IMG/VR virus record: IMGVR_UViG_3300008448_000045
Location: 12,824 to 76,823 of that record
DNA: 64,000 bases
Direction: 5' to 3' (one strand)
Source: a virus
In this document: positions 6,601 to 63,380 of the stretch, in pieces
Layout of the letters: every line of letters begins with the position of its first letter
Numbering within the stretch: position 1 is the first letter of the stretch
The notes under the pieces: generated by a model
Told to the model about the DNA's origin: nothing
Seen by the model: the letters and a program-made list of their open reading frames with translations, nothing else
Database searches by the model: none
Translations under genes and position numbers: made by a program

Positions 6601-7107
6601 CCAGAGTTAAACTTAATAAAATCAATAAGCGATGAAATAATTTATCATCCGGCAAGCTACAAGATACTTTTTGGATCAATGGCCGAGTTAGAATTGCAAG
6701 CAAGTTTTAAGGTTGTTAAAAATCCTTCACAGGTCATATCAGATAGCGATATAAAGTTACAAGTTGTTACAGCCATTAACCAATTTTTTAATTTAAGCAA
6801 TTGGGAATTTGGCGACACATTCTATTTTACAGAGTTAGCTACCTACGTAACTTCTACTCTAGCACCAAACATAGCAAATTTTGTTATTGTTCCTAGAAAA
6901 GAAGGTTTAAATTTTGGTAGTCTTTTTGAAGTTAAATCTGCAAGTGATCAGTTGTTTATAAGTGGAGCAACTGTTGACGATGTTGAAGTTGTTACAGGAT
7001 TAACATCAAGTTCTATTAAAGCAATAACTAGTACACAAGCAGATGCGGTTAACATCACCCAACAAAATGTTACAAGTTCACCCTACGGAGTAATGAATGG
7101 CAGATAA
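3640..7107 (+). CDS. Baseplate wedge protein gp6-like
   Basis: DFENLRRTMIDYI..DFNDYIESS..LIDLIAF..ENFLELAERRDSVLRLARMISY; FSDGIFG; ESIKANAP..TQSRMITGEDY. Confidence 0.85.
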   Translation: MSVTNRQNRLLVTQDWKKVYQSFKNADFQSYDFENLRRTMIDYIRTNYPEDFNDYIESSEYLALIDLIAFLGQSIAFRVDLNARENFLELAERRDSVLRLARMISYNAKRNIPSQGLLKFTTISTTENVIDSNGRNLANQTVSWNDPSNSNWYDQFIKIINAALPGTQQFGNPADSGNVYGIPTEQYRFQSSNTNVPIYAFTKIVDGRSMNFEITSTVFSNNGYIYEEPPKLGNKLSFIYRDDGRGLGSASSGFFLNFTEGTLNTGTFTINQPSSNQSVDIDAQNINNNDVWLYSLDTIGAESNLWTQVSNFKGNNVIYNSINKDIRNIYSAITRANDTISLQFSDGIFGDLPRGTFRTYYRTSNGLQYTINPRDIRNVSININYFSAQGQQQTLTVTLALSSSVSTSSVTESNESIKANAPANYYTQSRMITGEDYNISPLAVSSQIAKIKAVNRSSSGVSRYFDLADPTGKYSSTKLFADDGILYTENYNGSLRFSYKNKTDIEGIVYNDVYDLLRRPNLKHFYYSNNVSLITASLNVVWNMVTQDTGMSTGYVGNLTDGIIYKVGSFTPTDLKFLKPNALVKFNAPPGYYFDTNKSNKLVLGSSAEKGALTSIWAEVISVVDDGTASGKGVLNSGFGPITLNKTVPSNSIISEVISPWRMSIESSVITTMIDLIFNNKPFGLRYDSSVQQWKIVFETNLNTVSNFSLANAGDITGKSLDASWMLLFTTDNEFYTITTREQQYIFESENQLRFFLDDQSDIYDSTTRLVIKDTLSVLGINSQPDTNMPYTVDHIWEIVSEFNGLDGYVDNKKIIVSFADSDNNSVVDNPDLFLNIVSPLTNVTKKYILQEKYTIAEGQDDYRYVSNHDDKVIILDSEGSVGSKQKYVAGQHFYFIDKKVVKQLNSTKDELIPSLNYKLFVGRDSLKFQYNHYAKYDSRIDPGVSNLIDVFVLIKNYDIAFRQWLLKPTLSKPLPPSSAEIFDSISPELNLIKSISDEIIYHPASYKILFGSMAELELQASFKVVKNPSQVISDSDIKLQVVTAINQFFNLSNWEFGDTFYFTELATYVTSTLAPNIANFVIVPRKEGLNFGSLFEVKSASDQLFISGATVDDVEVVTGLTSSSIKAITSTQADAVNITQQNVTSSPYGVMNGR

Positions 7108-16100: not shown

Positions 16101-19100
16101 ACAGAAATAGTACTTGGAATACGCTGTTTCCTGGTGCAAGCGTGGATGTATATGAATGGGTAGAAACTACACTAACACCAGATCAGTGGAATGCTCAAGC
16201 AGACACTGATGCCGGGCTGTCAAACGGAATTAGCGGAACTTCTTTGTATAATAACACTACCTATAGCATAGTTAAACGATACGATCGCATTTCAAAGTCT
16301 TTTAAAAATACCTATTACTATTGGGTAAAAAATAAAAAGACTATTCCAGCAAATAAATCTAGAATAATATCAGCTATTGATGTGGCAAATTTAATTGCCA
16401 ACCCTAGAGGTGCCGGCTATAAATTCTTAGCATTAACAAGTGAAAATAGTTTTAGTCTTGTTAATGTACAACCGTTATTAGATAATAAAGATGTTATTTT
16501 AGGAATAGAATATTGGAATACAGAAAATATTGATCAGAACATTCATAGTCAATGGAAAATTATCAGTAATACTGACCGAGATGTAATTCCTAAAAACATA
16601 GAACAAAAATGGTTTGATAGTCTTTCTGGCAAAGACTTATACGGAAGGCCCGTGCCCGATCCGCTATTACCTCCAAAGTTAATGTTTGGAATTGAAAATA
16701 GACCCCGCCAGGGAATGTTTATTAATCGATTTGAAGCGTTAAAACAATTCATCGAAACTGTAAATTTAACTTTAGCAGGTTATCAATTAGTAGGACAAAA
16801 AAATCTTACTTCTTTTGATCAGTACGAACTAGAACCATCAAAAGAAACTACCGGACTATATGATGATGTTAAAGACACAGATGCAGAGTTAAGATTTGCC
16901 AGTGTTGGCTTGTTTAAGAAACCAGTGTTAATTCCAGTTATAGAAGATGGTAAAATAACAGATGTTATCATCGAAGAAAAAGGCAATGGCTATTTAAATC
17001 CACCGTATCTTCAAATTTTTGGAACAGGACAAGATGCAAGTATTAGAACAATTATTAATAGTATAGGTCAAGTAGTCGACATTGATATTATTAATCCAGG
17101 AGAAGGCTACACTTCTAATACTATATTAAGTATTAGAAATTATTCTGTTTTAGTCCATGCCGATAGTCAAGCTCAAGGTGTATGGAGTATATATTCTTAT
17201 GATTCTGATACTCTTTTATGGACTAGAGAAAGATCTCAGAGTTATGATGTAAGACGCTTCTGGAATTTTATAGATTGGTATGCATTAGGATATAATCAAT
17301 TTACTTCTGTAGATTACATTGTGAATAGTTTTTCTGATTTAATTAGCCTAGATACAGCAGTTGGACAAACTGTAAAACTTACATCGTCGTCAAGCGATAG
17401 TACATGGTTATTATTAGAAAAATATACTAATTCGGAATCAGTTGATTGGACACAAAGTTATAAAGTTATTGGAAGAGAAAAGGGCACAATACAGTTAAGT
17501 CCGGCTTTGTATAATTTTGAAAATACAGTATTTGGATACGATGGCTCTTTATATGATGGTACAGTTTTTGATAGCGCAGCATCAAAAGAATTACAAATTA
17601 TGTTAGAGTCAATAAAAAATAATATTTTTATTGATGATTTAAGATCTAAATATTTAGAATTATTCTTTAATAGTATTCGATATGCATTTAGCGAACAAAT
17701 TTATGTTGACTGGGCTTTTAAAACTAGTTTTGTACGAGCTCAACATAATGTTGGAGAATTAAGACAGCCAGTAACTTACAAAAATGACAATCTAGAAAAT
17801 TTTGAAGATTACATAGACGAAGTTAAGCCTTACAGAACAATTATAAGAGAATACATTAGCTCTTATGATTCAACTGATGTTGTATCTTCTTCTGTAACAG
17901 ATTTTGACTTAATACCTGCTAGCGAAGACAAACAATCACGATCAATAATAACAGAAGTTGTTAATGGTAAAATACTTGCCAAAGATAATTTAATTAATAG
18001 TTATCCTTGGAAATTTTGGCTTGATAATATAGGTTTTGTTGTAACTGAAATTAAAGTTACAAGTGGCGGATCTGAGTATAAAACTGAGCCGACAGTTAGA
18101 ATAATCAGCAACTCTGGAACGGGAGCATCAGCAAAGGCTTTTGTTGCTAACGGCCAAGTAACTAGAGTTGTTGTTGTTGAGAACGGTGCTGGATACCTAA
18201 GTGCTCCTCAAATTGTTATAGAAGGCGGCACCCGAGGCACAGTTGCTAAGGCAATCGCAGTTATAGGTGATTCTGTAGTAAGGTCTAACAAAATTCAAAT
18301 TAAATTTGATAGAATAACTTATAATTATTTTCTCAATCAGTTAGAATCAGTTGACACACATACTGGAACAAATACTAAATTTCAGTTTCCGTTAACATGG
18401 GCACCCGATGTTAGAATTAATAAATCAACAGTTTCCATTAAGTTAGCAAACACAACAGAATTTAACGAAGTTCTTAGAGATACTTATAAATTATCTATCG
18501 TTACGTCTTTAGTAAACGGGTCTACACAATATAGCGGATCAATTACATTTAATTCAGCGCCACCTAAGAATTCAACAATTAAAATTGAATATTTAAAGGA
18601 TTGGTCTTTATTAAATGCAGCTGACAGGATACAGTATTATTACAATCCGTTAGACGGAATGCCGGGAAAAGATTTAGAACAGTTAATGGACGGTATTGAT
18701 TACGGCGGAGTCCAAATTTTAGGATTAGGATTCGAAATTGGCCAAGGATGGGATAGTTTACCTTTCTTTAGCGATAGATGGGATTCCTTTGATTCAGAGT
18801 ATGACGATTATGTAACTACAATATCTGATATAAATGAAAATACATTTATCTTAAATTATGTTCCAAATGCAGGTACTAAATTAAATGTTTACCATGCTAA
18901 GTTAGTAGTTGATAATGTAGTATCCGATGGAGCAAATTTAAGATATCCGTATGATGCATTAGGTAGAAATCAAGTAGTAACAATTTTAACACCTACAACA
19001 AATCAAGCAATTGGCATACTTGTAAATTATGTTCCGACTGGCAGTAGCGGAACTACGTTAAAAGTTTCAAGCACAGTTGGAATCGAACCAAACATGACAG

Positions 19101-48458: not shown

Positions 48459-49033
48459 ATGTAATATTCCATGTCTGCAGCAAAAACAAATCTGTAATCA
48501 TCTGAGTCTATGATTCCAGGCCTATGCCATATTTTACTAGGATATATGACCCAAGTCAACTCCTTTGGTTTTAAGTAAAAAATATCTTTTTTGGTTGGCC
48601 AATCCATACAAAATTCTGTGCCAGCTGTATCTTGATTAGTAATTGACTTAGGAATATCCGCATACCAAACACCGCTAATTGAATTAGTTGTTCCGTTATT
48701 GTTACTCAAATGGTGTGTGTGCCAAAGGTCGTCTCTATCCTCAACTTCGTTTTGACTGGTCATAAAACACCAAGCCATCATGTTTTTAATTTTAACTTCA
48801 CCGCCTAAAAATTGAAAAACAGAATAAATGAAACTTTGTCTCATTTTTAAAAAAACTGCTTCGTTGCGAGCAAACAAGTTTTCTTGTGTTTGAAACTTTG
48901 GACTATTTTTAAAATAATTGCCAGAGTCAATAATTTGTTTAACTACAGAAGTTAATTGATTCATATCTTCTTGTTTAATTAAAGAAGACCAGTCGTATAA
49001 ATCAATATATTCATTCTTATCAACAACTACCAT
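48455..49033 (-). CDS. Putative 2OG-Fe(II) oxygenase / DSBH protein
   Basis: WHTHH..ISGVWY..GTEF..VIYPSKIWHRP..YRFVFA fits an HxH...H...R DSBH pattern. Confidence 0.55.
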   Translation of the reverse strand: MVVVDKNEYIDLYDWSSLIKQEDMNQLTSVVKQIIDSGNYFKNSPKFQTQENLFARNEAVFLKMRQSFIYSVFQFLGGEVKIKNMMAWCFMTSQNEVEDRDDLWHTHHLSNNNGTTNSISGVWYADIPKSITNQDTAGTEFCMDWPTKKDIFYLKPKELTWVIYPSKIWHRPGIIDSDDYRFVFAADMEYYI

Positions 49034-49461
49034 TAGCTAGCCTCTGATTTATCTTTAGTTATTTTGTTTATATTAATGAATCCTGCTCCACGACTAGCAT
49101 CCATACCTTCGTCGGTTAGCATATTTCTAACAATGTCTCGAAACCATCGATCTACAATTTCTTCTTCAGGATCTCCATCAAACCCGTACCCAGCTTTTTT
49201 TAAATCTAAAATAAAGTGTGCATTCCAATCAAGCTCAAAAAAACCGTTACGAGGATTATCCTTATTAACTTTAGTGTCTAATACTGAAACCCACGGTTCT
49301 CCTTTTTTAGTAGCACGTTCTTTTGGAGTTAGTTTTGCAAGCTCTTCTTTTTCTTGTGCTAGAACTGTTTCTGCTATTGCCTTATCTCTAGCGTCTTGAA
49401 GATTTTGTTTTTCTAATTCTATTTTATCAATGCCAAACAACTTTCTAATTATTTTTTTCAT
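49033..49461 (-). CDS. Hypothetical protein
   Basis: Likely start MKKIIRK with TAATG overlap to queE; PWVSV..NGFFELDWN..EEIVDRWF. Confidence 0.6.
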   Translation of the reverse strand: MKKIIRKLFGIDKIELEKQNLQDARDKAIAETVLAQEKEELAKLTPKERATKKGEPWVSVLDTKVNKDNPRNGFFELDWNAHFILDLKKAGYGFDGDPEEEIVDRWFRDIVRNMLTDEGMDASRGAGFININKITKDKSEAS

Positions 49462-50327
49462 TAAGTACCCCACTCATTTTTAAATAATGGCACTTGCAAG
49501 CGGTCACTATAACGTAAACCTGCATTCATTGCCATAATAGCCACTGCTCGATTGTTTAATGCGTAGACACTTTCTACTCCGCCGACTGGCATAAGATAAA
49601 CATGTCCAGCAAATCCAGCCGCACGATATTCTTCAGTTGCACGTTTAGCATCTTCGAAGTCTTGCTCTGTGGCAATAACAAATTTTAGATATGCTGTACC
49701 AACTTGTTCATATTCGCAAACAACTTCTGGAAGTATTGCTTCTTCCCATTTCTCACCACTACACGGAAGTTTGGCACTAACACTAAATGTTAATGCATTA
49801 TATCCTCTTGATTCAATACCCCAATTGAGTAAGTATTCTTTAAATTCCGGAGTAAGTTTTTGAGTACCGTTTGTTTCAAATGTAATTTCTTTTAATCCTG
49901 CCATTTTAGGATGATCTAGCAAATCTGGATAAGCACGTTGCCAACCTAGTAAAGGTTCTCCGCCAGTGATGACTAGATGTTCATCTTTCCATTCGTGGAA
50001 AGGAATAATTTCCATAATGCGATCTACAATAGCATCACTAGTAAGCATTGGACTTAGTTCTTTAAAGCTAGGATGCCAGCTAGCATAACTATCGCAACCT
50101 GTACTAACTAATGGAAGGTCTTCATATTTTTTAAATGGAGGCTCATCGTGAATGTCTTGCAATAGTGCAAGATTGTTTGCCTCTTCGCTTAGTTCACCTC
50201 TAGGCATACCAAAGCCGGCACATTTAAAATTACAACCGAATGTACGTAAGAAAACGGACGGTACACCCATGTAACGTCCTTCGCCTTGTACGCTATAAAA
50301 TAATTCTGCAATTTTTAATTTACTCAT
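49461..50327 (-). CDS. queE: 7-carboxy-7-deazaguanine synthase (radical SAM) with split Cys motif
   Basis: IAELFYSVQGEGRYMGVPSVFLRTFGCNFKC...GCDS, VITGGEPLL, FETNGT, SVSAKL, YLMP, YSDRLQ. Confidence 0.88.
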   Translation of the reverse strand: MSKLKIAELFYSVQGEGRYMGVPSVFLRTFGCNFKCAGFGMPRGELSEEANNLALLQDIHDEPPFKKYEDLPLVSTGCDSYASWHPSFKELSPMLTSDAIVDRIMEIIPFHEWKDEHLVITGGEPLLGWQRAYPDLLDHPKMAGLKEITFETNGTQKLTPEFKEYLLNWGIESRGYNALTFSVSAKLPCSGEKWEEAILPEVVCEYEQVGTAYLKFVIATEQDFEDAKRATEEYRAAGFAGHVYLMPVGGVESVYALNNRAVAIMAMNAGLRYSDRLQVPLFKNEWGT

Positions 50328-50550
50328 TTTCGTTTCTTTCTAAAAACATCGATACTTGATCTTCTGCATCAACATAGCTCTCCGCCCATACTGTAAACGT
50401 AGCAATACCATTCTTTGCACTTATATCAAACGGAACAACTCCGTTGGGTAACCAATTTTCTCCAACCTCTCTTTTAATTTCAAATTTTTGCAAAGCGGTG
50501 GTTTTCATTCTATATATTAGTTCATCGGCAAGTTGCTTTGCGGTTGTCAT
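50320..50550 (-). CDS. Hypothetical protein
   Basis: 76-aa ORF overlapping its neighbours. Confidence 0.55.
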   Translation of the reverse strand: MTTAKQLADELIYRMKTTALQKFEIKREVGENWLPNGVVPFDISAKNGIATFTVWAESYVDAEDQVSMFLERNENE

Positions 50551-50825
50551 ATGATTTCCTTTTCATAAATCTTTGACCATATTTTAAGCTTCTCTGATTT
50601 TTTTTGGCTTGCTTCTAATAGCTCTTGTTGGCTAAAAACTCCATGGTCGACTAACAGTTGTATCATTAACATAACATCACCGGCTTCTTGAGTCAAGTGT
50701 GCTCTCTGAGTACCGCCGTCTTTATAACTATTGTCTAAACCGAATCTACGAATTTTACTAGCAGATACAATTAATTCTCCACATTCTTCTTGCAGGATAT
50801 CTAAGATTTCTTGTATCTTGTTCAT
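50547..50825 (-). CDS. MazG-like NTP pyrophosphohydrolase
   Basis: LQEECGELIVSASKIRRFG...LTQEAGDV (EExxE...ExxD). Confidence 0.7.
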   Translation of the reverse strand: MNKIQEILDILQEECGELIVSASKIRRFGLDNSYKDGGTQRAHLTQEAGDVMLMIQLLVDHGVFSQQELLEASQKKSEKLKIWSKIYEKEII

Positions 50826-51211
50826 ACACAATCTCCTTGCTCTGCTAATTTAGATACTTCTTTATTGCTAGCTTTTACTTTTTTTTGCTTTCTAAATTCT
50901 GCTACATCATTAACAGCAGAGCGTAATGCTTGGGAATAATTAAGAGCTTGTTGTTCATTCATTATAGTACTAACTTCAGTTTCGATATAACCCTTAGTAA
51001 GCAACTTCCAAATTATTTGCCAACGATTTAACCCCCACCAAAGAGATTTCTGTTGTGTGTATATAGTTACAGTAACTCCAGCATCTTCAGCTTCTATCCA
51101 CACATTTTGCATATGGTCAGTACTTGTACATTCACACATAATTGAATAGTGTTTGGCATCGCCGTAATCTCTGTGTACTAAAATTCCTTGTGCTGGTGTT
51201 TGCGGAGTCAT
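50822..51211 (-). CDS. Hypothetical protein
   Basis: 129-aa ORF with a CEC..H motif; ATGA overlaps. Confidence 0.55.
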   Translation of the reverse strand: MTPQTPAQGILVHRDYGDAKHYSIMCECTSTDHMQNVWIEAEDAGVTVTIYTQQKSLWWGLNRWQIIWKLLTKGYIETEVSTIMNEQQALNYSQALRSAVNDVAEFRKQKKVKASNKEVSKLAEQGDCV

Positions 51212-51438
51212 TGTAAATTGGTCTCTATTTTAATAATTTTTACATCGTCTCTTGAATCTGAAATAGTATCAATCATCATTTCAAATTCATTAGGTTTGAG
51301 TATGGTTTTATAAATGCTAAGGGCTTGTGCTAACATAACGCCTGCAACAGAAAGCGGTCGATTACCATTTTCAATTAAATTTACTGTTAATTTCCAGTAA
51401 TTTTGATACGCTTCTTCTAATTTTAAATCATCGTTCAT
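51208..51438 (-). CDS. Hypothetical protein
   Basis: 76-aa ORF with ATGA overlap to folE. Confidence 0.55.
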   Translation of the reverse strand: MNDDLKLEEAYQNYWKLTVNLIENGNRPLSVAGVMLAQALSIYKTILKPNEFEMMIDTISDSRDDVKIIKIETNLQ

Positions 51439-52271
51439 CTTGGGGCAAACTCCTGTTGAAGTTTAATATTGTCAAAGAATTCTTTCTTTGTATTACCATC
51501 TTCTTTAAACGCACCTTTAAGCACCGTAGTTTGTGTCAGTGAGCTATGTGCCATAATACCGCGATTCTCACAGCAACCGTGTGTGGCTTGAATGTATACG
51601 CCTAGATCTTTGGCTCCTGTGGCCTTTTCGATTTCCCTAGCAATGTCATTGCAAAGTTCCTCCTGGAGAGTACCACGTCGGGCACACCACTGGGCAATGC
51701 GTGTGTACTTGCTAAGTCCGATAAGTTTCTCGGCAGCAATAAGACCAATATAAGCAACGCCAGTAACGGGTTGGTGATGATGGCTACACATACTGCGAAG
51801 CTCGCTACGGACAACCAACATACCTTCGTAACGGTCCTGCGAGTCATTTGGAAATGCTGTTGCGTCTGGTGCTTGTTCATATCTACCTGCCATTATTTCA
51901 TTAAAGTACATTTTAGCAAGGCGTCTTGCTGTACCTTTACTATTTGGATCATTTTCACGATCAATCAGCAAGCGATCAAGCACTAGTTCAAATGCTTCTG
52001 TTGCTTCGTTGATAAGTTTATCTTTATGTTCTTCTGTGACATAATCGCTAATATTGTCGCCTGCCCAGAAACGTTTATTGTCACGTTTCATTTTAAAGCG
52101 AATTGTATCTGCTAGATACGCTTCTTCGTATCCTTTGTCGCTCATCATTTCGCCGGCTTTAACGTATACCTTTTGGGGTAAAGGCACATACTGGTCTTCA
52201 AATGTATCCTTTACAAAAGTTTTATCAATTTCTGTATTGAGTGCAGGATCTGGTTTAAATTCGTTTGTCAA
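51435..52271 (-). CDS. folE: GTP cyclohydrolase I
   Basis: TARRLAKMY, SMCSHHHQP, LIGLSKYTRI, RRGTLQE, ATHGCCENRG, GAFKED..KKEF. TTG start with GGAG RBS. Confidence 0.93.
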   Translation of the reverse strand: MTNEFKPDPALNTEIDKTFVKDTFEDQYVPLPQKVYVKAGEMMSDKGYEEAYLADTIRFKMKRDNKRFWAGDNISDYVTEEHKDKLINEATEAFELVLDRLLIDRENDPNSKGTARRLAKMYFNEIMAGRYEQAPDATAFPNDSQDRYEGMLVVRSELRSMCSHHHQPVTGVAYIGLIAAEKLIGLSKYTRIAQWCARRGTLQEELCNDIAREIEKATGAKDLGVYIQATHGCCENRGIMAHSSLTQTTVLKGAFKEDGNTKKEFFDNIKLQQEFAPR

Positions 52272-52722: not shown

Positions 52723-52915
52723 GACCGCCTCCAAATCGTAATCCAGTCATACTACCAAACAGCAGTAAGAATGCCAGCCAAGTATCCCACGCATACGGAA
52801 TCTTTAAAACTGGAAATAAGGTATTTAAAGACCAAATTCCTAAAATAGGTCCTATAACTATTACTAGAACAATTGCTAGTAATGCAACAACTAATTTTAC
52901 TACAGATTTAATCAT
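52709..52915 (-). CDS. Small membrane protein (two hydrophobic segments)
   Basis: Start MIKSVV with ATGA overlap to the PRTase gene. Confidence 0.55.
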   Translation of the reverse strand: MIKSVVKLVVALLAIVLVIVIGPILGIWSLNTLFPVLKIPYAWDTWLAFLLLFGSMTGLRFGGGRGRT

Positions 52916-53460
52916 AACCAAAATTCCTCCCAAGGATAAACTAACCAACAGTCTTCCTCTGCTTTGTTAACGTTCCAAACACTGTAATCTGGATCTTTAA
53001 ATTCACTTGATTGATTGTGCGTTAGAACTGCAAATCGAACGTTATCACCCCATACTTGATTCCATTCAGTATCGTCCGGATAACAGCCGCTTGGCCAATC
53101 TTGTTTAATCCAATCGACAGTAGCGCCTGTATCGTTAATATCGTCAACTATAAGAATTTTCTTTTTAAGTTTCTCAACCCACTTGTTACCACCAAACTCT
53201 GCTCTACGATCAAACGGGACAGAACCTATTGCGTCTTCGGCCATGCCTAAATCACTTACACAGTCTCCGCCGTCACGCAAACTAACTTGTAATGGGCGCA
53301 TTGGAATGCCTGTGTATTGACTCAATAAAATAGCAGGAACAGCACCGCCTCTAGTAATGCCAACAATATAATCAGGTTTCCAATTGTCTGCTGACATTTG
53401 TCGAGCAATGTCTAAACACGCACCTTCTACTTGTTGCCAAGTGTAATAGACTTTTTTCAT
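52912..53460 (-). CDS. Type I phosphoribosyltransferase (xanthine/guanine PRTase-like)
   Basis: YYTWQQV, IVGITRGG, ILIVDDINDTGAT (PRPP-binding loop), WLVYPWE. Confidence 0.88.
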   Translation of the reverse strand: MKKVYYTWQQVEGACLDIARQMSADNWKPDYIVGITRGGAVPAILLSQYTGIPMRPLQVSLRDGGDCVSDLGMAEDAIGSVPFDRRAEFGGNKWVEKLKKKILIVDDINDTGATVDWIKQDWPSGCYPDDTEWNQVWGDNVRFAVLTHNQSSEFKDPDYSVWNVNKAEEDCWLVYPWEEFWL

Positions 53461-54614: not shown

Positions 54615-54972
54615 CCTTTACAAGTTTGTAAGTAGTCTTAAATTTTTCAAAGGCAATTTTAAGACCTGGATAAATGTCACACATTTTTTGTATTCGATCC
54701 CATTCCGGAAAACTATTTGACCATTCTTCAGGCGGATTAAAAATAAAAGATTCTAAATCAGTTGCGCTAATTGGGCCAAGAGTTACTGTACTAATATTAC
54801 CTGGGGTAGTGTACATAGTACTGTTGTCAATATAAATTTGATTAGAACCACTACCTCCAGATATAGTTATAGTATCTGAAGATGCATAATCATAACCAAC
54901 ATCGATAGTTATATCACCGATATTATCATCGGATATTGTCAAGTATTCTGTTTGCTGAGAAGAATTGCTCAT
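54583..54972 (-). CDS. Hypothetical protein (Ser/Thr-rich N-terminus)
   Basis: C-terminal MCDIYPGLKIAFEKFKTTYKLV. Confidence 0.55.
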   Translation of the reverse strand: MSNSSQQTEYLTISDDNIGDITIDVGYDYASSDTITISGGSGSNQIYIDNSTMYTTPGNISTVTLGPISATDLESFIFNPPEEWSNSFPEWDRIQKMCDIYPGLKIAFEKFKTTYKLVKDDYDNPDTQK

Positions 54973-55999
54973 ATAACATCTCCTTTTGTTTGTTAAGCAT
55001 AGGGAGTCGAGTCTTGTAGTTATCCATGTGCTCTATAATTTTAGAGCATATATCTGGTCTATATACTGTGTAGGCATCAAAACTTTCAGTCCACTTGCTA
55101 GGATACTTAAAAGTATCAAAATACATCTCTGTATAACTAAGTCTGTCTGGCACCATAGGAATAGCATCTACTACAGCACCTTCATAACAACTAATACCTA
55201 ATGTTTCTTGTAAATTAGCACTGAACACTATCTTTGCTTCACCTAACAAGTTATGATATTCATTTTTTGTTAGCTGTTGATCCTGACACACAATAAATTC
55301 ATACTGTGGTAGATGTTCTTTTAAATCTCGAAAGATTTCAACTTGCTTTTCTGGAGCAATGCGATGCGGAAATAATATGAGATCTCTTTTAGGCATATTT
55401 TTATACGGATTTAAAATATCTTCCATATATTCCATAGGCCAACCTGTACGCACTATTTTATTGCTGTTAATATATGACAGTTTTGCTGTTTCATAATCTA
55501 TGCTTAGTAGATTATGAGCAAACATATCAATATGAAAGTCTGTGGCAAAGTAGTTGTGATCAAACGCATGGAAGAAACTCTTTTCAGCATTTCTAACCCA
55601 AGGTGTATCACCTACAAGACGTCCTAAGAAGTCTTGTGGATCATAACTACCTGCATGCCAAAGTCCGTGTGTAATAACTGGAATGCCCAGCAACTCGCTC
55701 ATGTACTTTAAGTTGATGATACCCGGGTGCCAAGCATCAGTAAAAATAAAGTGATCGCCGGGATGAACGGCTCCGTTGCAAAATAAGCGGCCCATCTGCT
55801 CCACTTGTGCTGACTTATAAACATTGGTACCGCCAAAATTAAGGAAAGCACCAGGAGTAGTGGCTGAAGGAATATCCGCAGGGCCAGATAAAATTTGAAC
55901 ATTGTGACCTGCCTTTTTTAATAATTTAGGTATATGGGTCTTCCATTGACCCGTATACCTTGTCTCAACTGATTCTAAATCAACTAAAAATATTGTCAT
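54926..55999 (-). CDS. GT-B (GT4-like) glycosyltransferase resembling DUF3524/GTDC1
   Basis: FPHRIAPEKQ, IVFSANLQETLGISCYE (E-x7-E motif), PMVPDRLSYTEMY. Confidence 0.78.
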   Translation of the reverse strand: MTIFLVDLESVETRYTGQWKTHIPKLLKKAGHNVQILSGPADIPSATTPGAFLNFGGTNVYKSAQVEQMGRLFCNGAVHPGDHFIFTDAWHPGIINLKYMSELLGIPVITHGLWHAGSYDPQDFLGRLVGDTPWVRNAEKSFFHAFDHNYFATDFHIDMFAHNLLSIDYETAKLSYINSNKIVRTGWPMEYMEDILNPYKNMPKRDLILFPHRIAPEKQVEIFRDLKEHLPQYEFIVCQDQQLTKNEYHNLLGEAKIVFSANLQETLGISCYEGAVVDAIPMVPDRLSYTEMYFDTFKYPSKWTESFDAYTVYRPDICSKIIEHMDNYKTRLPMLNKQKEMLYEQFFSANRILDNIR

Positions 56000-56274: not shown

Positions 56275-56670
56275 TTAGTACTTAATAAATGAACCATTTT
56301 CTCCGTCTTCGGAGACCTCAATCCAAACCTCACGGTCTGGATACTTTGTGTGAATCTGAGCATATAAGTCATCGCTCATCATCTCACAACTCTTATAGTC
56401 TAGCGACAATACACCTTCGTTGCTAGAATACAATTTTTCCAACCATCGTTTGAATTGTATAAATTCCACATCTCTGTCATTGTGGGTAACACTAAGATAA
56501 ACCCTAAAATGAAAAATATGGCGATGGGGATTAGCCAAAAACGAGACATCATATTCATCTCCTGTTGCTAGATTGGGATCAGTTGCGGCTGCGGGATATT
56601 TGTGAATACCTTCTTTTCGAAAGGTAACCCAAATCATTTTATGTGGACGTATATCTTGTTTAATAATCAT
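56275..56670 (-). CDS. dpdL: QueD/PTPS-paralogous T-fold protein, DpdL type
   Basis: EGIH..FLANPHRHIF (LxxxHRHxF in place of CxxxHGH)..SCEM..IEVSEDGENG. Confidence 0.65.
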   Translation of the reverse strand: MIIKQDIRPHKMIWVTFRKEGIHKYPAAATDPNLATGDEYDVSFLANPHRHIFHFRVYLSVTHNDRDVEFIQFKRWLEKLYSSNEGVLSLDYKSCEMMSDDLYAQIHTKYPDREVWIEVSEDGENGSFIKY

Positions 56671-57185
56671 TTGATAATTTCGTCGTTTTTATATTGTGAC
56701 CAGTCTGTGAACTTACTACGATCCATTAGTGTATGTAGACTGTGGGACCATACACCGGGATTAGTTGCTTTAAAATCTTTGTCATCAATTTTAAGCATTG
56801 TATTATAATTCCATAATTTAATATAAGGAATTGGAATTCTAATTTGCGGGATAAAGTTATCGTATTCGCAATACCCACTCTCGTGAAATTCTTCAACTTG
56901 ACTTAAGGGAATATCTAAAGAACAAAGATAACCTTTTTCTAAAAAGAAGAAAATCATTTCCTCCCACTGTTTATGGTTATCATATCCTTGCGGATTAAAA
57001 CTATGATTAGCACCAAAGAAAATATGATTAATTTTTTGATTAACTAATGCACCTTCAATTGCGTCAATCGGTTGAATATCAACTACAAATAATGTATTCA
57101 TACCATATGCCGGCGTGTGTTCTACTTCTTTGCCAAAGAAGAATACAACACTACTCGATTGCCCATCTGTATAATCACGATTCAT
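56667..57185 (-). CDS. Hypothetical protein in the deazaguanine locus
   Basis: EVEHTPAYG, HIFFGANHSF, KIDDKDFKATNPGVW; overlaps both neighbours. Confidence 0.6.
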   Translation of the reverse strand: MNRDYTDGQSSSVVFFFGKEVEHTPAYGMNTLFVVDIQPIDAIEGALVNQKINHIFFGANHSFNPQGYDNHKQWEEMIFFFLEKGYLCSLDIPLSQVEEFHESGYCEYDNFIPQIRIPIPYIKLWNYNTMLKIDDKDFKATNPGVWSHSLHTLMDRSKFTDWSQYKNDEIIK

Positions 57186-57426
57186 TTTTATTTTGCTCGT
57201 ATTGTTTGAATAAACGGGTTACTTCTTCCATGCGTTCTGCAAATACATGCGGGCTAGCTTCGGCTGCTTGTTGCATGTCCCAACTATTAGGGTAGTGACG
57301 TAGGCAACCGCTAGCTCGTTGCCTAATGATTTTAGGAACTTTGGGTGTAACAGTACGGTCACATAAATCCTTTAGTAGTTGTTCTGCCATTTTAACAGCA
57401 CGATATCGTTCATCTGGTAAGGTCAT
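57175..57426 (-). CDS. Hypothetical protein
   Basis: MTLPDERYRAV..LRHYP; ATGA overlap with the TGT-like gene. Confidence 0.6.
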   Translation of the reverse strand: MTLPDERYRAVKMAEQLLKDLCDRTVTPKVPKIIRQRASGCLRHYPNSWDMQQAAEASPHVFAERMEEVTRLFKQYEQNKNES

Positions 57427-58973
57427 TCTTTTACCTGTAATTCTAGCTGGTCTAATTTTGATTCTTCTTCGTCAGTAAATTCGTCACTATGCTCTGATTG
57501 TAGTGTATTTGAATCTGTTTCGTCAAATAGATTGGCAAACATAGTGCTAGCATTGACAGTCTTTTTACCAGTAGCTCCCCTAGTGCCAATGATACTCATC
57601 CAAAAACGACTATATTCTTCAACAACAGCATCGGCAGTACCTCTATCACTAGTTGCAAAAATAGCTTCTACAATATCTTTAAAGAATAGTCTATCAAATT
57701 TCTCTTGTACCAACATAGCTGGAACATTGCCAGCATCATATTTTCTATTAGCTTCTTGTACAGCATTAATATGATGCCAAACATTGTGCCCCATTTGAAT
57801 GGCATAGCTAAAACTATCCCATGAAGTTTTACCTTCTTTGCCTATTTTATTTAGGTCGCCGGGCTTATAGATACAAATATCTTTAATTTGACACTGATCA
57901 ATTATTGGACTTGATTCAAAGTTTTTAAAGATGCCATCTTGTATTACCGCGTCTTTGAAGAGACGAGTATCCGCGGCATATTTTTTGTCATCTGCACTAG
58001 CTTGCATTCTGTAGACCCACTTAGTTCTGTCTTCTGTTTCTGTTTGGATGTAGATTTGTCCGTTTGCTGTTGCCAAAAACGGTGAGGCGCAGTCAAAAGA
58101 TATGGTAAAGTTTTCATTATGATATTTCCTTACAGCACGTTGAATGTCTGTGAGCAAAGTTGCCCACTCCAATTTTGATGTTCCTAAGAAGTGCATCCAG
58201 TCTTGTTTGCCTTTTTCTAGTAGTCCATCAAATCTTAGTGCCACTAACCGCTTTAGCGTTAAGTGTACATCGCACATATTCTGTCCGCCCATAGCCCAAC
58301 CGTTAAAAGCACGGTCACCATAGACTTTAGGATCGCAATACTTCTTCATTCTATCATACCAATCATCTGCATCAGTATGATTTTCACCTTGAAGAACATT
58401 TAAGAATTTACAATTGCCATTACGATTGTTTACGAACCAATCATTGTTAATATATGTTCCTTGCACTGCTTCTGCGTATGTAGTAATACCTGTGGCTTTT
58501 TGTCCAGCAGGACTACGAGCTACCCAAGCAGGAATATCTAAACACATACCATAGTCCATAAGTGCATCCATCCACTTAAGAACTTGTTCACGTTTCTTTT
58601 GTGCTTTAGGACAGTTAGGATTTTTCCAGTCACCTTCCCACACACCTTTACCAATTTGGAAACCACCTGAATCACCAAGTACCCAACTAGTACTACGATT
58701 GCGATTACGGAACATGTCTTCGCTTTCGTCTTGTTTATTGAGATCTAAATTAGCGTGACCTGCAGAGTATAGACAGTGGTCATAGTAAAATAACCCTTTG
58801 TCCGGGTCTAAATAATTTAGGCTTTCTATCCCATTAGTAAAGCTAGCGGGGATACGGGCAGGGTCAACATAGTTGCCATACCGTTGTTTGCCTATAAATG
58901 TAGCATAAAATCCTGACGTTGCTGGCAGGAAATATGCGTAGTCATTTTGAGCTATTGTTAAGTTCTTATTCAA
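57423..58973 (-). CDS. TGT/DpdA-like guanine transglycosylase (7-deazaguanine insertase)
   Basis: GDSGGFQ, MCLDIP, NVLQG, GWAMGG, MHFLG, ISFDCASP and terminal HN, all in TGT order. TTG start. Confidence 0.8.
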   Translation of the reverse strand: MNKNLTIAQNDYAYFLPATSGFYATFIGKQRYGNYVDPARIPASFTNGIESLNYLDPDKGLFYYDHCLYSAGHANLDLNKQDESEDMFRNRNRSTSWVLGDSGGFQIGKGVWEGDWKNPNCPKAQKKREQVLKWMDALMDYGMCLDIPAWVARSPAGQKATGITTYAEAVQGTYINNDWFVNNRNGNCKFLNVLQGENHTDADDWYDRMKKYCDPKVYGDRAFNGWAMGGQNMCDVHLTLKRLVALRFDGLLEKGKQDWMHFLGTSKLEWATLLTDIQRAVRKYHNENFTISFDCASPFLATANGQIYIQTETEDRTKWVYRMQASADDKKYAADTRLFKDAVIQDGIFKNFESSPIIDQCQIKDICIYKPGDLNKIGKEGKTSWDSFSYAIQMGHNVWHHINAVQEANRKYDAGNVPAMLVQEKFDRLFFKDIVEAIFATSDRGTADAVVEEYSRFWMSIIGTRGATGKKTVNASTMFANLFDETDSNTLQSEHSDEFTDEEESKLDQLELQVKE

Positions 58974-59145
58974 TTCTACCCCACTTTATTTTTAACCATA
59001 GTCGTTCAAAAATATAATGTACTATAGTTAATATAATATGTATGATTATGGCATCTCCAAGACCAGTCCATATAGCAGTAATAAGCAAAGCCGCAATTCT
59101 ATAACTTACGGTCCTTGCTATAGTTCTTTTATGTGTTTCTAACAT
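58966..59145 (-). CDS. DUF2061-like small membrane protein (59 aa), not in the ORF track
   Basis: MLETHKRTIARTVSYRIAALLITAIW..HYIFERLWLKIKWG; TAATG coupling to the clamp gene. Confidence 0.7.
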   Translation of the reverse strand: MLETHKRTIARTVSYRIAALLITAIWTGLGDAIIIHIILTIVHYIFERLWLKIKWGRIE

Positions 59146-59876
59146 TACTTGCTTTGCGCTGGGAGAATATAGTTGTATTCAGCCATACCGCTATCCACAG
59201 TGATCATCATAGCACCTGCATCACTAATTTTAACAGTCTTATCTCCAGCAAGTGCTAGAATACTCATAACTTGAATAACAGGCCATGCCCAGGTAGATTT
59301 TAATTTGCCAACAACATTAGCTTCAAAAACAAATTCTCCTGCATGGGTACTAGCATCTCCAAAACTAAAAACAAGATTATTGTTTTCAGTCTTTACTTGG
59401 AATACAGTTTCCTCACTGTGGGCGTTTGCTTGGAATTTTAATCTTTGAATAGAAGACACGTTAGGTTCAAAATCAACACTCCATGTTGCACCTTTAAACT
59501 TAACAGATTTTAATTTCTCATTAATAATCTCAGTGTTCATAAATCTGTAATCATTTTGAAAATCACCAGCGGCGTTTTTAAAATGTAATCCAGTTGGAAT
59601 TACTTCATTATTTCTTTCTGCGGTTGTAACACCAATTGATGCACCTTCTTTATATTCAGGACACTTTAAATGAATGTCTAGCTTGTTTAAATTAGGCATG
59701 CCAAAAATACCTTCAAATTCTGATACAGGTGTTTTAGTCTTTGCATTAATGATTACTGATCGATCCTCAGCCATACCTTCAATTTGAGTCTCTTCTTCAG
59801 AAGACGAAATCTTAATTAAAGGAATAAATCCAAGTGCATGAGTGTGTGCTACTAGGTCTTGTAAAATATCTTTCAT
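59145..59876 (-). CDS. DNA polymerase sliding clamp (gp45-like)
   Basis: About 243 aa two-domain alpha/beta pattern (FGMPNLNKL..DYRFM..YNYILPA) near polB. Start MKDIL with GGAG RBS. Confidence 0.65.
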   Translation of the reverse strand: MKDILQDLVAHTHALGFIPLIKISSSEEETQIEGMAEDRSVIINAKTKTPVSEFEGIFGMPNLNKLDIHLKCPEYKEGASIGVTTAERNNEVIPTGLHFKNAAGDFQNDYRFMNTEIINEKLKSVKFKGATWSVDFEPNVSSIQRLKFQANAHSEETVFQVKTENNNLVFSFGDASTHAGEFVFEANVVGKLKSTWAWPVIQVMSILALAGDKTVKISDAGAMMITVDSGMAEYNYILPAQSK

Positions 59877-59896
59877 GTTTTTCTCCATTGTTAATG

Positions 59897-59925
59897 ATTA
59901 TATTTAGGTTTTTGTTAAAGGTCAA
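59897..59925 (-). promoter_or_regulatory. Promoter TTGACC-N17-TATAAT with overlapping CTAAATA
   Basis: Upstream of the clamp/TGT operon. Shares the 14-mer CAAAAACCTAAATA with the folE promoter. Confidence 0.65.
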
Positions 59926-60709
59926 GAGTCTTTCTTACCGTTTTATTATATTCAATTGCTGATTTAAGCACATCTAACGATACACCTAATTGATCTGAAT
60001 ATTTTATTAATGCTTTAGTATCTTTTGGAAAACAATGCCCCCCAAAGCCACGATCTTCATCAATCCCGGGGACTAATGTATGACTAGATCCAATTCTATG
60101 ATCGTGGACTAAAATTTGTCTTACAACATTAAAATCTGCCCCATTGGCATTGCAAAGATCAAACATATGATTAAAGAAAGCTACTTTGGTTGCTAAAAAC
60201 GAATTAGCTGCGTATTTTATTGTAGATGCTTCGGTTAGTGTGCATTTAAAAAATATTTTAGATAATGGCAACGCTTCAGAGAGTATAGTTTCCCAGAAAC
60301 TGTCTGGATCGTCACCTCCTAAAATTGTAAACCTTTGGTTAGTAAAGTCAAACTCTGCTGATCTAGCACGTAAGAATTCCGGACTATAACATATAGGGTT
60401 ATCTGGAAAATCTGTTACTAACTTTTCAAGATTGTCTGGAGTTACTGTAGATTTGATTAAAATAGGTGTGTTTGGCGAAGTCTTTGAAATAACATCTCTA
60501 ATCTGACTGTCATCACACCCGCCGTCTTCTAAACTTGGTGTTCCTACACAAATAACAACCCCGTCTGCTAATGGATAGTCCTCCATTTTAGAACTATTAT
60601 AGAGTGGATCTATAATTGAACATTGATTAAATTCTCTCAAGGCTTTAAATACAGCTTTACCAACAAAGCCGTAGCCTGCAACTAGTATTTCTTTTTTTTC
60701 TTGTTTCAT
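59915..60709 (-). CDS. ugd: UDP-glucose/GDP-mannose dehydrogenase family protein (C-terminal domain absent)
   Basis: GYGFVG, CVGTP, IKSTV, SPEFLR, KYAANSFLATKVAFFN, GFGGHCFPKD. Confidence 0.85.
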   Translation of the reverse strand: MKQEKKEILVAGYGFVGKAVFKALREFNQCSIIDPLYNSSKMEDYPLADGVVICVGTPSLEDGGCDDSQIRDVISKTSPNTPILIKSTVTPDNLEKLVTDFPDNPICYSPEFLRARSAEFDFTNQRFTILGGDDPDSFWETILSEALPLSKIFFKCTLTEASTIKYAANSFLATKVAFFNHMFDLCNANGADFNVVRQILVHDHRIGSSHTLVPGIDEDRGFGGHCFPKDTKALIKYSDQLGVSLDVLKSAIEYNKTVRKTLDL

Positions 60710-60710
60710 A

Positions 60711-63380
60711 TTATATGTCAAATAAACTATTAAATGTATTTTTTTCTTCAGTGCTAGTAATATTCCAGTTTAGAACACCAATAAGATTTTCTAACTTCTT
60801 ATCAATAATAGTAGCTTCCATTTCAGCATGATCAAACGGCAAATCTTTGAACCATTGTGGCAAACGTAATTCATCCACTGGGTAAGCAACACTATTATAT
60901 TCTAATGGATTTTGTTTTAGTTTACAAACAATAACCTTAGCACCATCAGTAATACCCATTGAATATTTGTCGCTAAACATACGCTTCAATGTATCCCAAT
61001 TAATACTTGCACGAACGTGCCCTGGCATATTAGCTTTACCTTGTTTGACTTCTTTAGCTTGATATTCAGTAATGTTGTTAGCACGTTTAGGACTACCTTT
61101 TTCCCATCCGGGTCTTGCTTTAAACTTAGCACGGAATTCACTAATAAAATCTAATACTTGTTGTTCAGTAGATCCGGTCAACACCATTTCAAGTACATCG
61201 CTTAAAAAGTTTTGAATGAATTCTGGTGTGTCACTTCGTTTAAGATCTAGCCCCATGGCCTTGATCTTACCAGGCTTACCTTCTACATCTGCTCGCTTAC
61301 CTTCTTTGTCATAGTATAATACAGCATACCGTTTTTTAGTAATAAACAACGCTTTAGAACCAACAATTTCTCGTCCTGCTTTAATAACTTCGCCCCTTGA
61401 TTTAGGACAATGAAATGCATCTAACATAAATTGTGGAAAAGTTGCATTAACTTCCTCTCCAATTTGATCATATAGTTGAACTACAGTTTCTTTAGTCCAC
61501 GGTATATGTCCTGCATCAATTTCTTTCTTTAGTATTTTGTAAGCACTAAAGTAACAAGAGTCAGTATCGCCGTAGATGATTGCTTTACCGCGATAGTCAT
61601 AATCACCCGCAACAATCTCATTTACTTTACTTGCCATGTGTTTAACAATTTGGCGACCAGTAAGTGTAGTTGATTGGCCAATACGCTTGTCAAAGAATCT
61701 ACAACCAGCATTAAGAATAGCACCATACAAACTGTTCAAGTTAATCTTCTTAACTAGCTGACGTTTATCCCAATATTCTTCCTCAACTTTATTACCTGCT
61801 TTAATTGCTTCTTTAAGTTTAGCCTGCATCTCTTTACGTTCTGCATACCAACGTTTCAGTAGCCCTGGAATGATACCTTCTTTCTCATATGTAAAGATTG
61901 TACCGTTAGCTGAAAGCATCCAAGGTTGATTGCTTTCAAAAATTAATCTATAAACTTCTGCGGCACTTACTATATCACTAGAACCATCTTCCCAGTCGAT
62001 AGCAATATCTGTACCTATTTCTTGATTCATTACAGCAGTATATTCTAAACTACCAAACACACCTTCCCATGCTGATGCAAATGACTTACCTTTATTAATT
62101 TGTTCTTGAATAAAATTATCAGTAAGAATTGGCCTTAATTGCCCAATAATAGTTTCAGGCCCCATATTCAACGCACGAATCGCTGATGGGTAAAGTGAGT
62201 TAATATCTAGTGAGCCGATCCAGTCTTGCAAACCTTCTTTAGGATATGCAACATAAGCACCGGCAGCACCTTCATTGCTTTCTCTTTCATTCATTTTTGT
62301 TCTATTAGGAACAACAAAGCCTCTACGATGTGCTTCGTTAATAATAGCTTGCTCAGTAACAGCTACAGCCCCCATAGTTGTTTGTACTAGTACTGTATTT
62401 TCATGTGCTAGTGTATTGGCTAGATCCAAGAACTTGAGTTTCTTGTCGAGTCTATCCAATAGCGCACAGTCTTGTCTGTTATATTCGACGAATGTTTTAA
62501 AATCGTTGTTGTAGAGTTGGTCCAAAGTTCCTTCATACTGAGTTTTTCTTTCACCAAGCTCGTATTCCGCGATGGCATCCAATCGATAGGAGTGTCTTTC
62601 TTCATAAGTATATTTCCTATAAAGTTCTAGATAATCAACGTGAACTCGACCAACAAAATCATACGTAGTCGACTCTCTTCCAAATTTTTCAAATTCTCTT
62701 CTACGAGGAAATAAATTAAACAGACAGAACCGTCTAGTATCTTCTTTGCTCAATACTTTTGTTACACGGTTAACAGTATAGGGAATATCGAATCCCTCAC
62801 TGTTCCATCCAGACAACACATCTGCTTCTTGTATTAGATCTAAGAATGTGTCCAACAAGTCTGCCTCGTTGTCAAACAACATAGTATTAGGAAAGTCTTT
62901 AACCATTTCTTTGGCATCTTCCATTTTAACTTTCTTTGGAGGAATTGCCAAACAAATCATAGTGTCTAACCACTGCAGGTGAATAGCGATAGCAGTAATT
63001 GGCATGAATGCATCGTCGGGGGATGCATAGCCACGTTCTGGGTCAAAGTCCACCTCAATATCGAAAAACGCTACATTTAGTTTAGGTGCATCTGCATTAA
63101 GATAGTTTTCGCTTAAACAAACAAAAATAGGATTAATATCAGATTCGTAAAGTTGTCGACTACTATTAATAGCCATTTCTTTACGGAGCTCTTTAGTGTT
63201 TTTACAAACTATTCTTGAAACTGGATCCCCATAGATTGAATTAAACTTTCCTTTGGGGTCTTTAACATAGAATGTATGGCGTACCGGAATATCTTTATAT
63301 TCTCTTTCGCCTTTTTTATTTCGTTCGACAATTCTGATAATATCATTATCTCGGTCGAAGTATGCATCTACATACGACAT
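60711..63380 (-). CDS. Family B DNA polymerase (gp43-like)
   Basis: FFDIEVD, GWNSEGFDIPY, YNRQD exonuclease motifs; DINSLYPS, KINLNSLYG, YGDTDS, KKRY polymerase motifs. Confidence 0.95.
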   Translation of the reverse strand: MSYVDAYFDRDNDIIRIVERNKKGEREYKDIPVRHTFYVKDPKGKFNSIYGDPVSRIVCKNTKELRKEMAINSSRQLYESDINPIFVCLSENYLNADAPKLNVAFFDIEVDFDPERGYASPDDAFMPITAIAIHLQWLDTMICLAIPPKKVKMEDAKEMVKDFPNTMLFDNEADLLDTFLDLIQEADVLSGWNSEGFDIPYTVNRVTKVLSKEDTRRFCLFNLFPRRREFEKFGRESTTYDFVGRVHVDYLELYRKYTYEERHSYRLDAIAEYELGERKTQYEGTLDQLYNNDFKTFVEYNRQDCALLDRLDKKLKFLDLANTLAHENTVLVQTTMGAVAVTEQAIINEAHRRGFVVPNRTKMNERESNEGAAGAYVAYPKEGLQDWIGSLDINSLYPSAIRALNMGPETIIGQLRPILTDNFIQEQINKGKSFASAWEGVFGSLEYTAVMNQEIGTDIAIDWEDGSSDIVSAAEVYRLIFESNQPWMLSANGTIFTYEKEGIIPGLLKRWYAERKEMQAKLKEAIKAGNKVEEEYWDKRQLVKKINLNSLYGAILNAGCRFFDKRIGQSTTLTGRQIVKHMASKVNEIVAGDYDYRGKAIIYGDTDSCYFSAYKILKKEIDAGHIPWTKETVVQLYDQIGEEVNATFPQFMLDAFHCPKSRGEVIKAGREIVGSKALFITKKRYAVLYYDKEGKRADVEGKPGKIKAMGLDLKRSDTPEFIQNFLSDVLEMVLTGSTEQQVLDFISEFRAKFKARPGWEKGSPKRANNITEYQAKEVKQGKANMPGHVRASINWDTLKRMFSDKYSMGITDGAKVIVCKLKQNPLEYNSVAYPVDELRLPQWFKDLPFDHAEMEATIIDKKLENLIGVLNWNITSTEEKNTFNSLFDI

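Follow-up and report, generated by a model that had tools for sequence, protein, structure and literature searches.

The locus described here raises the question of whether a large phage protein that no sequence database recognizes is an enzyme that exchanges guanine in DNA, and whether its place beside a sliding-clamp gene reflects work at the replication fork. The gene, P0001 (57423-58973, minus strand), encodes 516 amino acids (aa) and lies in a 64,000-nucleotide stretch of the IMG/VR viral record IMGVR_UViG_3300008448_000045 (positions 12,824 to 76,823), here called the window. From structure prediction, profile comparison and gene context, we put the probability that P0001 is a DpdA-type DNA guanine transglycosylase from a deep and unnamed subfamily at roughly 0.7. 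What is new is that an F-x-x-L-F motif in its disordered tail mirrors the C-terminus of the phage's own family-B DNA polymerase (PolB), a pairing that recurs in other lineages and would provide a mechanism for coupling base exchange to replication.

Predicted fold and active site of P0001

The structure of P0001 was predicted with AlphaFold2 using 45 homologues (26-60% identity) as input. The model reached a predicted local distance difference test score (pLDDT) of 90 and a predicted template modelling score (pTM) of 0.90, with disorder (pLDDT < 50) confined to residues 464-495. A Foldseek search of the PDB with this model returned tRNA-guanine transglycosylases (TGT) for all of the top 50 matches (E ~5e-7). 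Alignment with VIA-align gave Z scores of 17-18 against bacterial, archaeal and human TGT over ~300 residues (root-mean-square deviation 4.4 A), spanning residues 9-423 of the model. Comparison of the P0001 family with E. coli Tgt by hhalign gave 89.4% (E 2e-6) and set D101, D146 and D294 of P0001 on D89, D143 and D264 of the E. coli enzyme, with the DSGGFQ, Q-G, G-x-A-x-G-G, L-G and F-D-C motifs in the same register. These results support the TGT/DpdA kinship proposed in the initial annotation, which was made from the DNA letters and their translations.

In P0001 the motifs are DSGGFQ (D101), MCLD (D146), LQG (Q195-G196), GWAMGG (225-230), HFLG (261-264) and FDC (D294). Residues S70, D101, S102, G104, D146, P148, N192, G225, H261, G264 and D294 were invariant in 45 of 45 homologues, and since these eleven positions hold down to 26% identity the motifs are not chance. 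All motifs listed in the initial annotation were present and in order, and the catalytic Asp residues were intact; only the Cys of 'FDC' failed to hold, being Ser or Ala in 36 of the 45 homologues, with the Asp alone conserved.

In TGT and bacterial DpdA the three Asp serve as acid/base, base-reading residue and nucleophile (PMC10164549). The D101 codon (58671-58673, minus strand) falls on E. coli TGT D89 and bacterial DpdA Asp95, the general acid/base; the D146 codon (58536-58538, minus strand), within L-D-I-P, on D143 and Asp130, which reads the base edge; and the D294 codon (58092-58094, minus strand), within S-F-D, on D264 and Asp256, the nucleophile. Around the base-reading Asp (residues 146-148; 58536-58544, minus strand) P0001 has D-I-P with the Pro invariant, E. 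coli TGT has D-E-C and six DpdA2 sequences have D-E-I-P.

The zinc triad C-x-C-x2-C...H was absent across the family, as the initial annotation had noted for P0001 itself; the sole conserved Cys column was C367 (32/45), and H396 (39/45) was the one late His that was conserved. P0001 has the TGT barrel and three catalytic Asp and no zinc site, and this zinc-free barrel may interest enzymologists. The loss of the site together with the long extra segments marks strong divergence, and would fit a fold kept for another role, for example as an excision-only DNA glycosylase or as a non-catalytic DNA-binding part of the replisome. We consider such a role very unlikely, because the eleven invariant positions include all three Asp needed for exchange and because base-synthesis genes co-occur with the family in all four lineages checked.

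Placement among DpdA subfamilies

The subfamily comparison covered DpdA2, DpdA3 and DpdA4; open reading frames (ORFs) of phiSM tried as DpdA1 gave no usable match. A hidden Markov model (HMM) of the P0001 family found the DpdA2 gene of phage nt-1 (E 2.9e-4) but had no match in the records of phiST and of Campylobacter phage CPt10. By hhalign the family scored 93.7% against nt-1 DpdA2 alone and 97.5% (E 7.6e-12, 180 columns) against a profile of DpdA2 from six phages, on a scale where DpdA2 and E. coli TGT score 81.9%. The score against phiST DpdA3 was 63.5% over just 82 columns (Foldseek E 2e-3), and that against HVTV-1 gp69 (DpdA4, DUF6610, PF20314) was 0.1%, with no Pfam match either. CPt10 gp021, tried as a DpdA3, was unrelated.

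With nt-1 DpdA2 as the query and an E cut-off of 1, tblastn reached 71 records, none of them PA5oct-like, 2.275.O or Phosso, the isolated phages that carry P0001 homologues (below), and reverse BLAST from P0001 reached no DpdA2 phage. We read the P0001 family, on these alignments, as a separate, deep and so far unnamed branch beside DpdA2. The initial annotation had held that the subfamily could not be assigned by eye; profile comparison now puts P0001 nearest to DpdA2, while BLAST and HMM searches leave it outside.

Like DpdA2 (nt-1 YP_008125322, VH7D, ACP17 gp123), P0001 has a TGT-derived core with the three Asp in register. The six-sequence DpdA2 alignment was also without a conserved Cys, and the P0001 family may therefore not be alone in having lost the zinc site. 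DpdA2 proteins are of similar size, 416-464 aa as against 516 aa for P0001, of which residues 1-93 and 307-516 were unaligned. The P0001 family retains more of the TGT-like motifs than DpdA2, keeping the exact DSGGFQ and a Gln at 195 as in E. coli TGT. The DpdA2 enzymes of nt-1 and VH7D insert 7-cyano-7-deazaguanine (preQ0) or 7-aminomethyl-7-deazaguanine (preQ1) into DNA in E. coli (PMC10516641).

Other relatives were more distant in one respect or another. Bacterial TGT (E. coli Tgt and Z. mobilis TGT; PF01702) shares the fold and the motif register, whereas P0001 has no zinc site, falls below the Pfam threshold, carries ~140 extra residues and sits in a context of phage replication rather than tRNA metabolism. 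The DpdA3 of phiST (CGPG_00065) is placed between the polymerase and the pathway for 7-carboxy-7-deazaguanine (CDG), with DpdL and no QueC (PMC10516641), and its expected substrate class, CDG or 7-deazaguanine (DG), is similar to that of P0001; however, it is a protein of 259 aa with D-N-G-A-G-D in place of DSGGFQ. Bacterial DpdA from Salmonella Montevideo, for which a crystal structure exists, is a DNA-directed enzyme of the TGT fold with three catalytic Asp, and its hydrophobic base-stacking pair Phe99 and Leu236 is apparently matched by F105 and L263 of P0001, by motif position only. In contrast to P0001, it keeps the zinc site and depends on the DpdB ATPase, and its His181 stands at the position of the Gln of the P0001 family (PMC10164549).

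Family size and sequence searches

Searches with the single P0001 sequence matched nothing in Pfam, PHROGs, NCBIfam or the PDB sequences, and a PADLOC search gave noise only, with no model matched. The profile of the 45 homologues also gave only noise against the PDB sequences, with no solved structure. At 90% identity the matches listed already made up over 7,900 clusters, a lower bound for the family, and at 50% identity there were 986 clusters, mostly from freshwater metagenomes. BLAST homologues in isolated phages were found in PA5oct-like Pseudomonas jumbo phages (33% identity; gp316, EST35_0316, in PA5oct), Vibrio phage 2.275.O (29%) and Sinorhizobium phage Phosso (27%), all annotated as hypothetical. 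P0001 would stand for a large unannotated branch of phage DpdA enzymes. DpdA is treated as the signature gene for 7-deazaguanine DNA, and because Pfam, PHROGs, NCBIfam and PADLOC all miss this family, genome surveys would undercount guanine-modified phages.

Deazaguanine genes in the replication operon

P0001 lies in a minus-strand operon that runs PolB, a UDP-glucose-dehydrogenase-like (UGD-like) gene, a 247-aa clamp, a 59-aa ORF, P0001, ORFs of 83 and 172 aa, a 131-aa QueD paralogue, a 357-aa gene, a cupin-like gene, a phosphoribosyltransferase (PRTase), FolE, a weak MazG-like gene, QueE, a 2-oxoglutarate (2OG)-oxygenase-like gene and RNase H. FolE, a GTP cyclohydrolase I, is at 51435-52271 (minus strand; PF01227, E 2.1e-39), and the QueE-like radical SAM enzyme, a CDG synthase, at 49461-50327 (minus strand; phrog_2076, E 1.9e-48), with 48% identity to QueE of Synechococcus phage BUCT-ZZ01. 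The 131-aa protein (56275-56670, minus strand) carries the L-x3-H-R-H-x-F signature of DpdL, a proposed CDG decarboxylase (PMC10516641), and in tblastn was 32% identical to phiST DpdL (E 2e-13), 54% to ACP17 gp125 and 55% to a PA5oct gene. Two other candidates for QueD or DpdL, the ORFs at 50822-51211 and 49033-49473, had no Pfam match and no T-fold signature.

The 372-kb genome of a complete relative, G001, which has direct terminal repeats, contains FolE, QueE and a canonical QueD (C-x3-H-G-H). No QueC was found in it, and PF01702 matched nothing in G001 or in the viral record of the window. From this we infer that the phage pathway ends at CDG or DG and that P0001 is the sole candidate with a TGT fold.

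In ACP17 a module with homologues of the 172-aa and 357-aa proteins, DpdL and QueE has DpdA2 in the slot of P0001. In Vibrio phage 2.275.O, which a 2019 census lists with empty DpdA columns, the P0001 homologue lies beside QueF, a YhhQ-type transporter, QueC and FolE. Across the four lineages with a P0001 homologue, FolE was present in 4/4 and a clear QueE in 3/4, with a weak QueE match near FolE in Phosso. For PA5oct, QueE and PTPS have been noted and no transglycosylase named; its DNA resists several restriction enzymes with G in their sites and is cut by others, and is reported to carry a modified G and to be a target of END nucleases (PMC12191111). A P0001-type enzyme is likely to be the missing transglycosylase of PA5oct.

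The DpdL, FolE and QueE neighbours, the kinship with DpdA2 (PMC10516641) and the G-linked restriction resistance of PA5oct DNA (PMC12191111) all fit DNA rather than tRNA as the target, a preference that the initial annotation had drawn from the operon alone. A tRNA-guanine transglycosylase acting on host or phage tRNA would share the fold and catalytic residues of P0001, and the Gln at 195 is that of E. coli TGT. We regard this as extremely unlikely: no tRNA gene was found in the window, P0001 has no zinc subdomain and is not matched by the TGT model of Pfam, its operon is one of replication with a DpdL-like gene, its nearest family modifies DNA, and its tail copies a polymerase clamp motif.

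The inserted base would be derived from CDG and is probably 7-deazaguanine, although base identity is the weakest step of our reading, and with neither QueD nor QueC in the window it amounts to a guess. It is possible, though doubtful, that P0001 is a DNA transglycosylase for a base other than plain 7-deazaguanine, either CDG or a tailored, perhaps sugar-bearing derivative made by the glycosyltransferase-like 357-aa protein and the UDP-sugar-dehydrogenase-like, cupin and 2OG-oxygenase-like neighbours. The 357-aa protein (54926-55999, minus strand) is possibly a family-1 glycosyltransferase, a lead that comes from the names of its Atlas neighbours; no match was found in Pfam or PHROGs, which counts against the call. 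By tblastn it has homologues in ACP17 (gp124, L097:7257-8285; 35%, E 1.5e-62) and PA5oct (gp317, L001:9620-10681; 44%), and in both phages the gene adjoins that of the DpdA protein. The short UGD-like gene (59915-60721, minus strand; 268 aa; UDP-glucose/GDP-mannose-dehydrogenase-like) lies between PolB and the clamp and recurs near QueE in CPt10, and a tailored base would also fit the finding that dpdA and dpdL alone, from phiST or ACP17, yielded no deoxy-7-deazaguanosine (dDG) in E. coli (PMC10516641). However, 7-deazaguanine has no obvious acceptor group, and in phiST, likewise a phage with DpdL, the DNA contains plain dDG (PMC10516641).

The UGD-like counterpart in CPt10, a Campylobacter phage that likewise has deazaguanine genes but no QueC, is at L002:10011-10781 (27%, E 1e-21), two genes from QueE. 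The uncharacterised 172-aa protein (56667-57185, minus strand) matched ACP17 gp122 in tblastn (31%, E 2e-18) and is a candidate partner or missing pathway step. Its ACP17 homologue (L097:5504-5986) lies directly upstream of DpdA2.

Sliding clamp and polymerase-like tail

The initial annotation had placed P0001 in a 'clamp operon', and the predicted structure of the 247-aa neighbour (59145-59888, minus strand) upholds this. In the Atlas its neighbours bear the names PCNA or sliding clamp, and the top 50 Foldseek matches were all sliding clamps, nearly all of them PCNA and one a Rad9-Hus1-Rad1 clamp (E ~1e-9, TM ~0.6), for a model with a pLDDT of just 62. In PA5oct and 2.275.O, too, the P0001 homologue is preceded by a homologue of the clamp. 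Mass spectrometry gave the PA5oct clamp homologue (gp314, L001:6915-7661; 34%, E 1.6e-41) the annotation 'structural protein', which misleads unless the clamp is packaged. In Phosso a 240-aa gene in the clamp position (L091:9202-9924) is annotated 'virion structural protein'; no similarity to the clamp was found for it by tblastn.

Residues 478-485 of P0001 (57519-57542, minus strand) form an F-x-x-L-F-D motif, a candidate clamp-binding site resembling a PCNA-interacting peptide (PIP), which lies in the disordered tail and is followed by the acidic tail. The same F-x-x-L-F-D pattern is found in the last 8 residues of PolB (60714-60737, minus strand), presumed to be its clamp-binding tail by analogy to T4/RB69 gp43 (PMC3012046). 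PolB (60711-63380, minus strand; 889 aa) matched phrog_262 (E 1.7e-202), PF00136 and PF03104. It is uninterrupted; in the annotation of PA5oct a homing-endonuclease gene splits the polymerase (L001:1608-6834) into two parts.

In T4 and RB69 the polymerase tail is a PIP-box peptide that binds gp45, and basic residues of the clamp meet acidic groups of the motif (PMC3012046). P0001 resembles the gp43-gp45 pair (PDB 1b8h) in having a short hydrophobic-aromatic motif with acidic flanks on a flexible C-terminal segment, and an adjacent gene for a trimeric PCNA-like clamp. It differs in that the motif is on a putative base-exchange enzyme rather than on a polymerase, ligase or RNase H, and that binding is predicted only. 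The literature search found no paper tying DpdA to a sliding clamp.

Many of the 45 family tails carried a hydrophobic-x-x-hydrophobic-Phe motif, frequently with acidic flanks. The motif was present in 22 of the 45 tails (49%) and in 16 of 421 body windows (4%), a 12-fold enrichment. When the operon genes were scored against the PolB tail, only a small 79-aa ORF equalled P0001.

PolB and DpdA tails were compared in ten lineages, namely the window, G001, PA5oct, 2.275.O and Phosso, together with the DpdA2 phages ACP17, BUDD, BUCT-ZZ01, pf16 and KVP40. The last seven PolB residues matched the DpdA tail of their own phage best in 5 of the 10 lineages and second-best in 2. The summed tail score was 193. 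Swapped pairs gave 115 +/- 19, with a fraction of 1.2e-4 attaining the observed sum, and shuffled tails gave 81 +/- 10; the swapped-pair statistics ignore relatedness among the phages. In 2.275.O, ACP17, BUDD and BUCT-ZZ01 the DpdA-type protein and PolB share near-identical terminal residues, so that the pairing was present in 3 of the 5 DpdA2 phages compared. The DpdA2 proteins of these three end in the tail motif of their own PolB, whereas the motif of P0001 is internal. Among these three phages the DpdA of ACP17 was the only one named in the literature searched.

The initial annotation had suggested a multimer prediction with the clamp, and this gave weak support. A predicted complex of the clamp trimer with residues 460-516 of P0001 scored 0.52, compared with 0.00 for the best of 3 controls, and had a contact agreement of at least 34% and a partner pLDDT of at least 41. 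Of 80 solved complexes 58 attained the mark for this score, as did 2 of 110 mismatched pairs, but just 7 of the 80 and both mismatches did so with 0.60 or less. A score of 0.52 lies in a band that the prediction tool rates as wrong in most cases unless the prior is likely. We give the tether alone, that is, binding of the P0001 tail to the clamp, an even chance or slightly less. The broader idea, that the P0001 family and at least part of DpdA2 are sliding-clamp clients that exchange guanine on nascent DNA behind the fork, is put forward tentatively and at slightly less than even odds. The PolB-like motif adds a further line of support to the replication coupling that had been suggested from operon position.

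Proposed mechanism and the nucleotide-pool alternative

In the mechanism we propose, FolE, QueD and QueE would make CDG, which the neighbouring DpdL-like enzyme would probably decarboxylate to 7-deazaguanine. P0001 would remove guanine from duplex phage DNA by double displacement, through a covalent Asp-deoxyribose intermediate, and would then place the 7-deazaguanine base at the vacated site. The F-x-x-L-F motif in the disordered acidic tail would bind the PCNA-like clamp in the pocket used by the polymerase tail, and P0001 would then travel with clamps that stay behind on nascent DNA, modifying that DNA immediately after the fork. The 357-aa, UGD-like and 172-aa genes may add pathway steps, which would be compatible with the failure to obtain dDG from dpdA and dpdL (PMC10516641). 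If true, this would be a replication-coupled base-exchange machine, and it could account for guanine replacement that is very high or complete although the enzyme is 'post-replicative'.

The tail motif bears on whether high-level deazaguanine replacement has a pre- or post-replicative origin. On a pre-replicative route the PRTase would make a deazaguanine nucleotide, the MazG-like protein would trim dGTP and PolB would incorporate the modified dNTP, leaving the TGT-like enzyme to act on free nucleotides or just to patch residual G. The operon does contain a PRTase (52912-53460, minus strand; PF00156, E 1.3e-11) and a small MazG-like protein (50547-50831, minus strand; PF03819, E 7.8e-4, a weak match below the cut-off). 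PRTase homologues were found in phiST (L003:28221-28640) and inside the deazaguanine cluster of BUCT-ZZ01 (L096:5736-6197), where the gene lies between QueE and QueD and is annotated as a xanthine-guanine PRTase. Moreover, phiST and Campylobacter phages replace all G, and a free nucleoside of 7-amido-7-deazaguanine (ADG) was observed in infected cells (PMC10516641). We nevertheless think this route unlikely. The nearest characterised relatives of P0001 act on DNA (PMC10516641), a clamp-binding motif would be useless to an enzyme of the nucleotide pool, and the PRTase could instead salvage released guanine. In addition, the cutting of PA5oct DNA by some enzymes with G in their sites points to partial, context-dependent modification (PMC12191111).

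Several results weigh against P0001 being a clamp-bound DNA transglycosylase. Its family is without the zinc site that is conserved in TGT and bacterial DpdA (PMC10164549). PF01702 matched 2 of the 45 family members, at E 0.043 or worse, and gave 0 matches for P0001, and sequence methods alone fail to place P0001 in TGT. No QueD (PF01242) or QueC (PF06508) was found in the 76.8-kb record, which is ~21% complete, and dpdL with dpdA gave no dDG, as described above. For the tether, the tails of Phosso, pf16 and KVP40 fit the pattern poorly, and the pLDDT of the clamp model, the relatedness of the phages compared and the band of the complex score count here as well. The PRTase and MazG-like genes also fit the nucleotide-pool route.

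Reading frame and source of the window

The 516-aa frame given in the initial annotation was found in the ORF list and translation, on the minus strand and with a TTG start. The stop-to-stop frame contains just 4 further codons upstream of this TTG, and the first Met, at about residue 87, lies downstream of conserved N-terminal columns, so the start is TTG or a codon just beside it. Close homologues were of equal length with 100% coverage. The acidic C-terminal tail noted by eye was also present, with 13 acidic and 2 basic residues among the last 45.

The window comes from a 76.8-kb viral contig, and because a contig of this size is just ~21% complete, its source is taken to be a jumbo phage. 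A search for related loci with 10 family sequences found close relatives alone, at 65-89% identity. Near-identical DNA was present in lake and freshwater metagenomes, in 16 DNA runs from about ten studies, with at least one fifth of the sampled words found. The share of the gene present in RNA runs was too small to bear on its expression. The plus-strand half of the window, which is probably structural, contains one open frame of 4,996 codons at 7097-22087.

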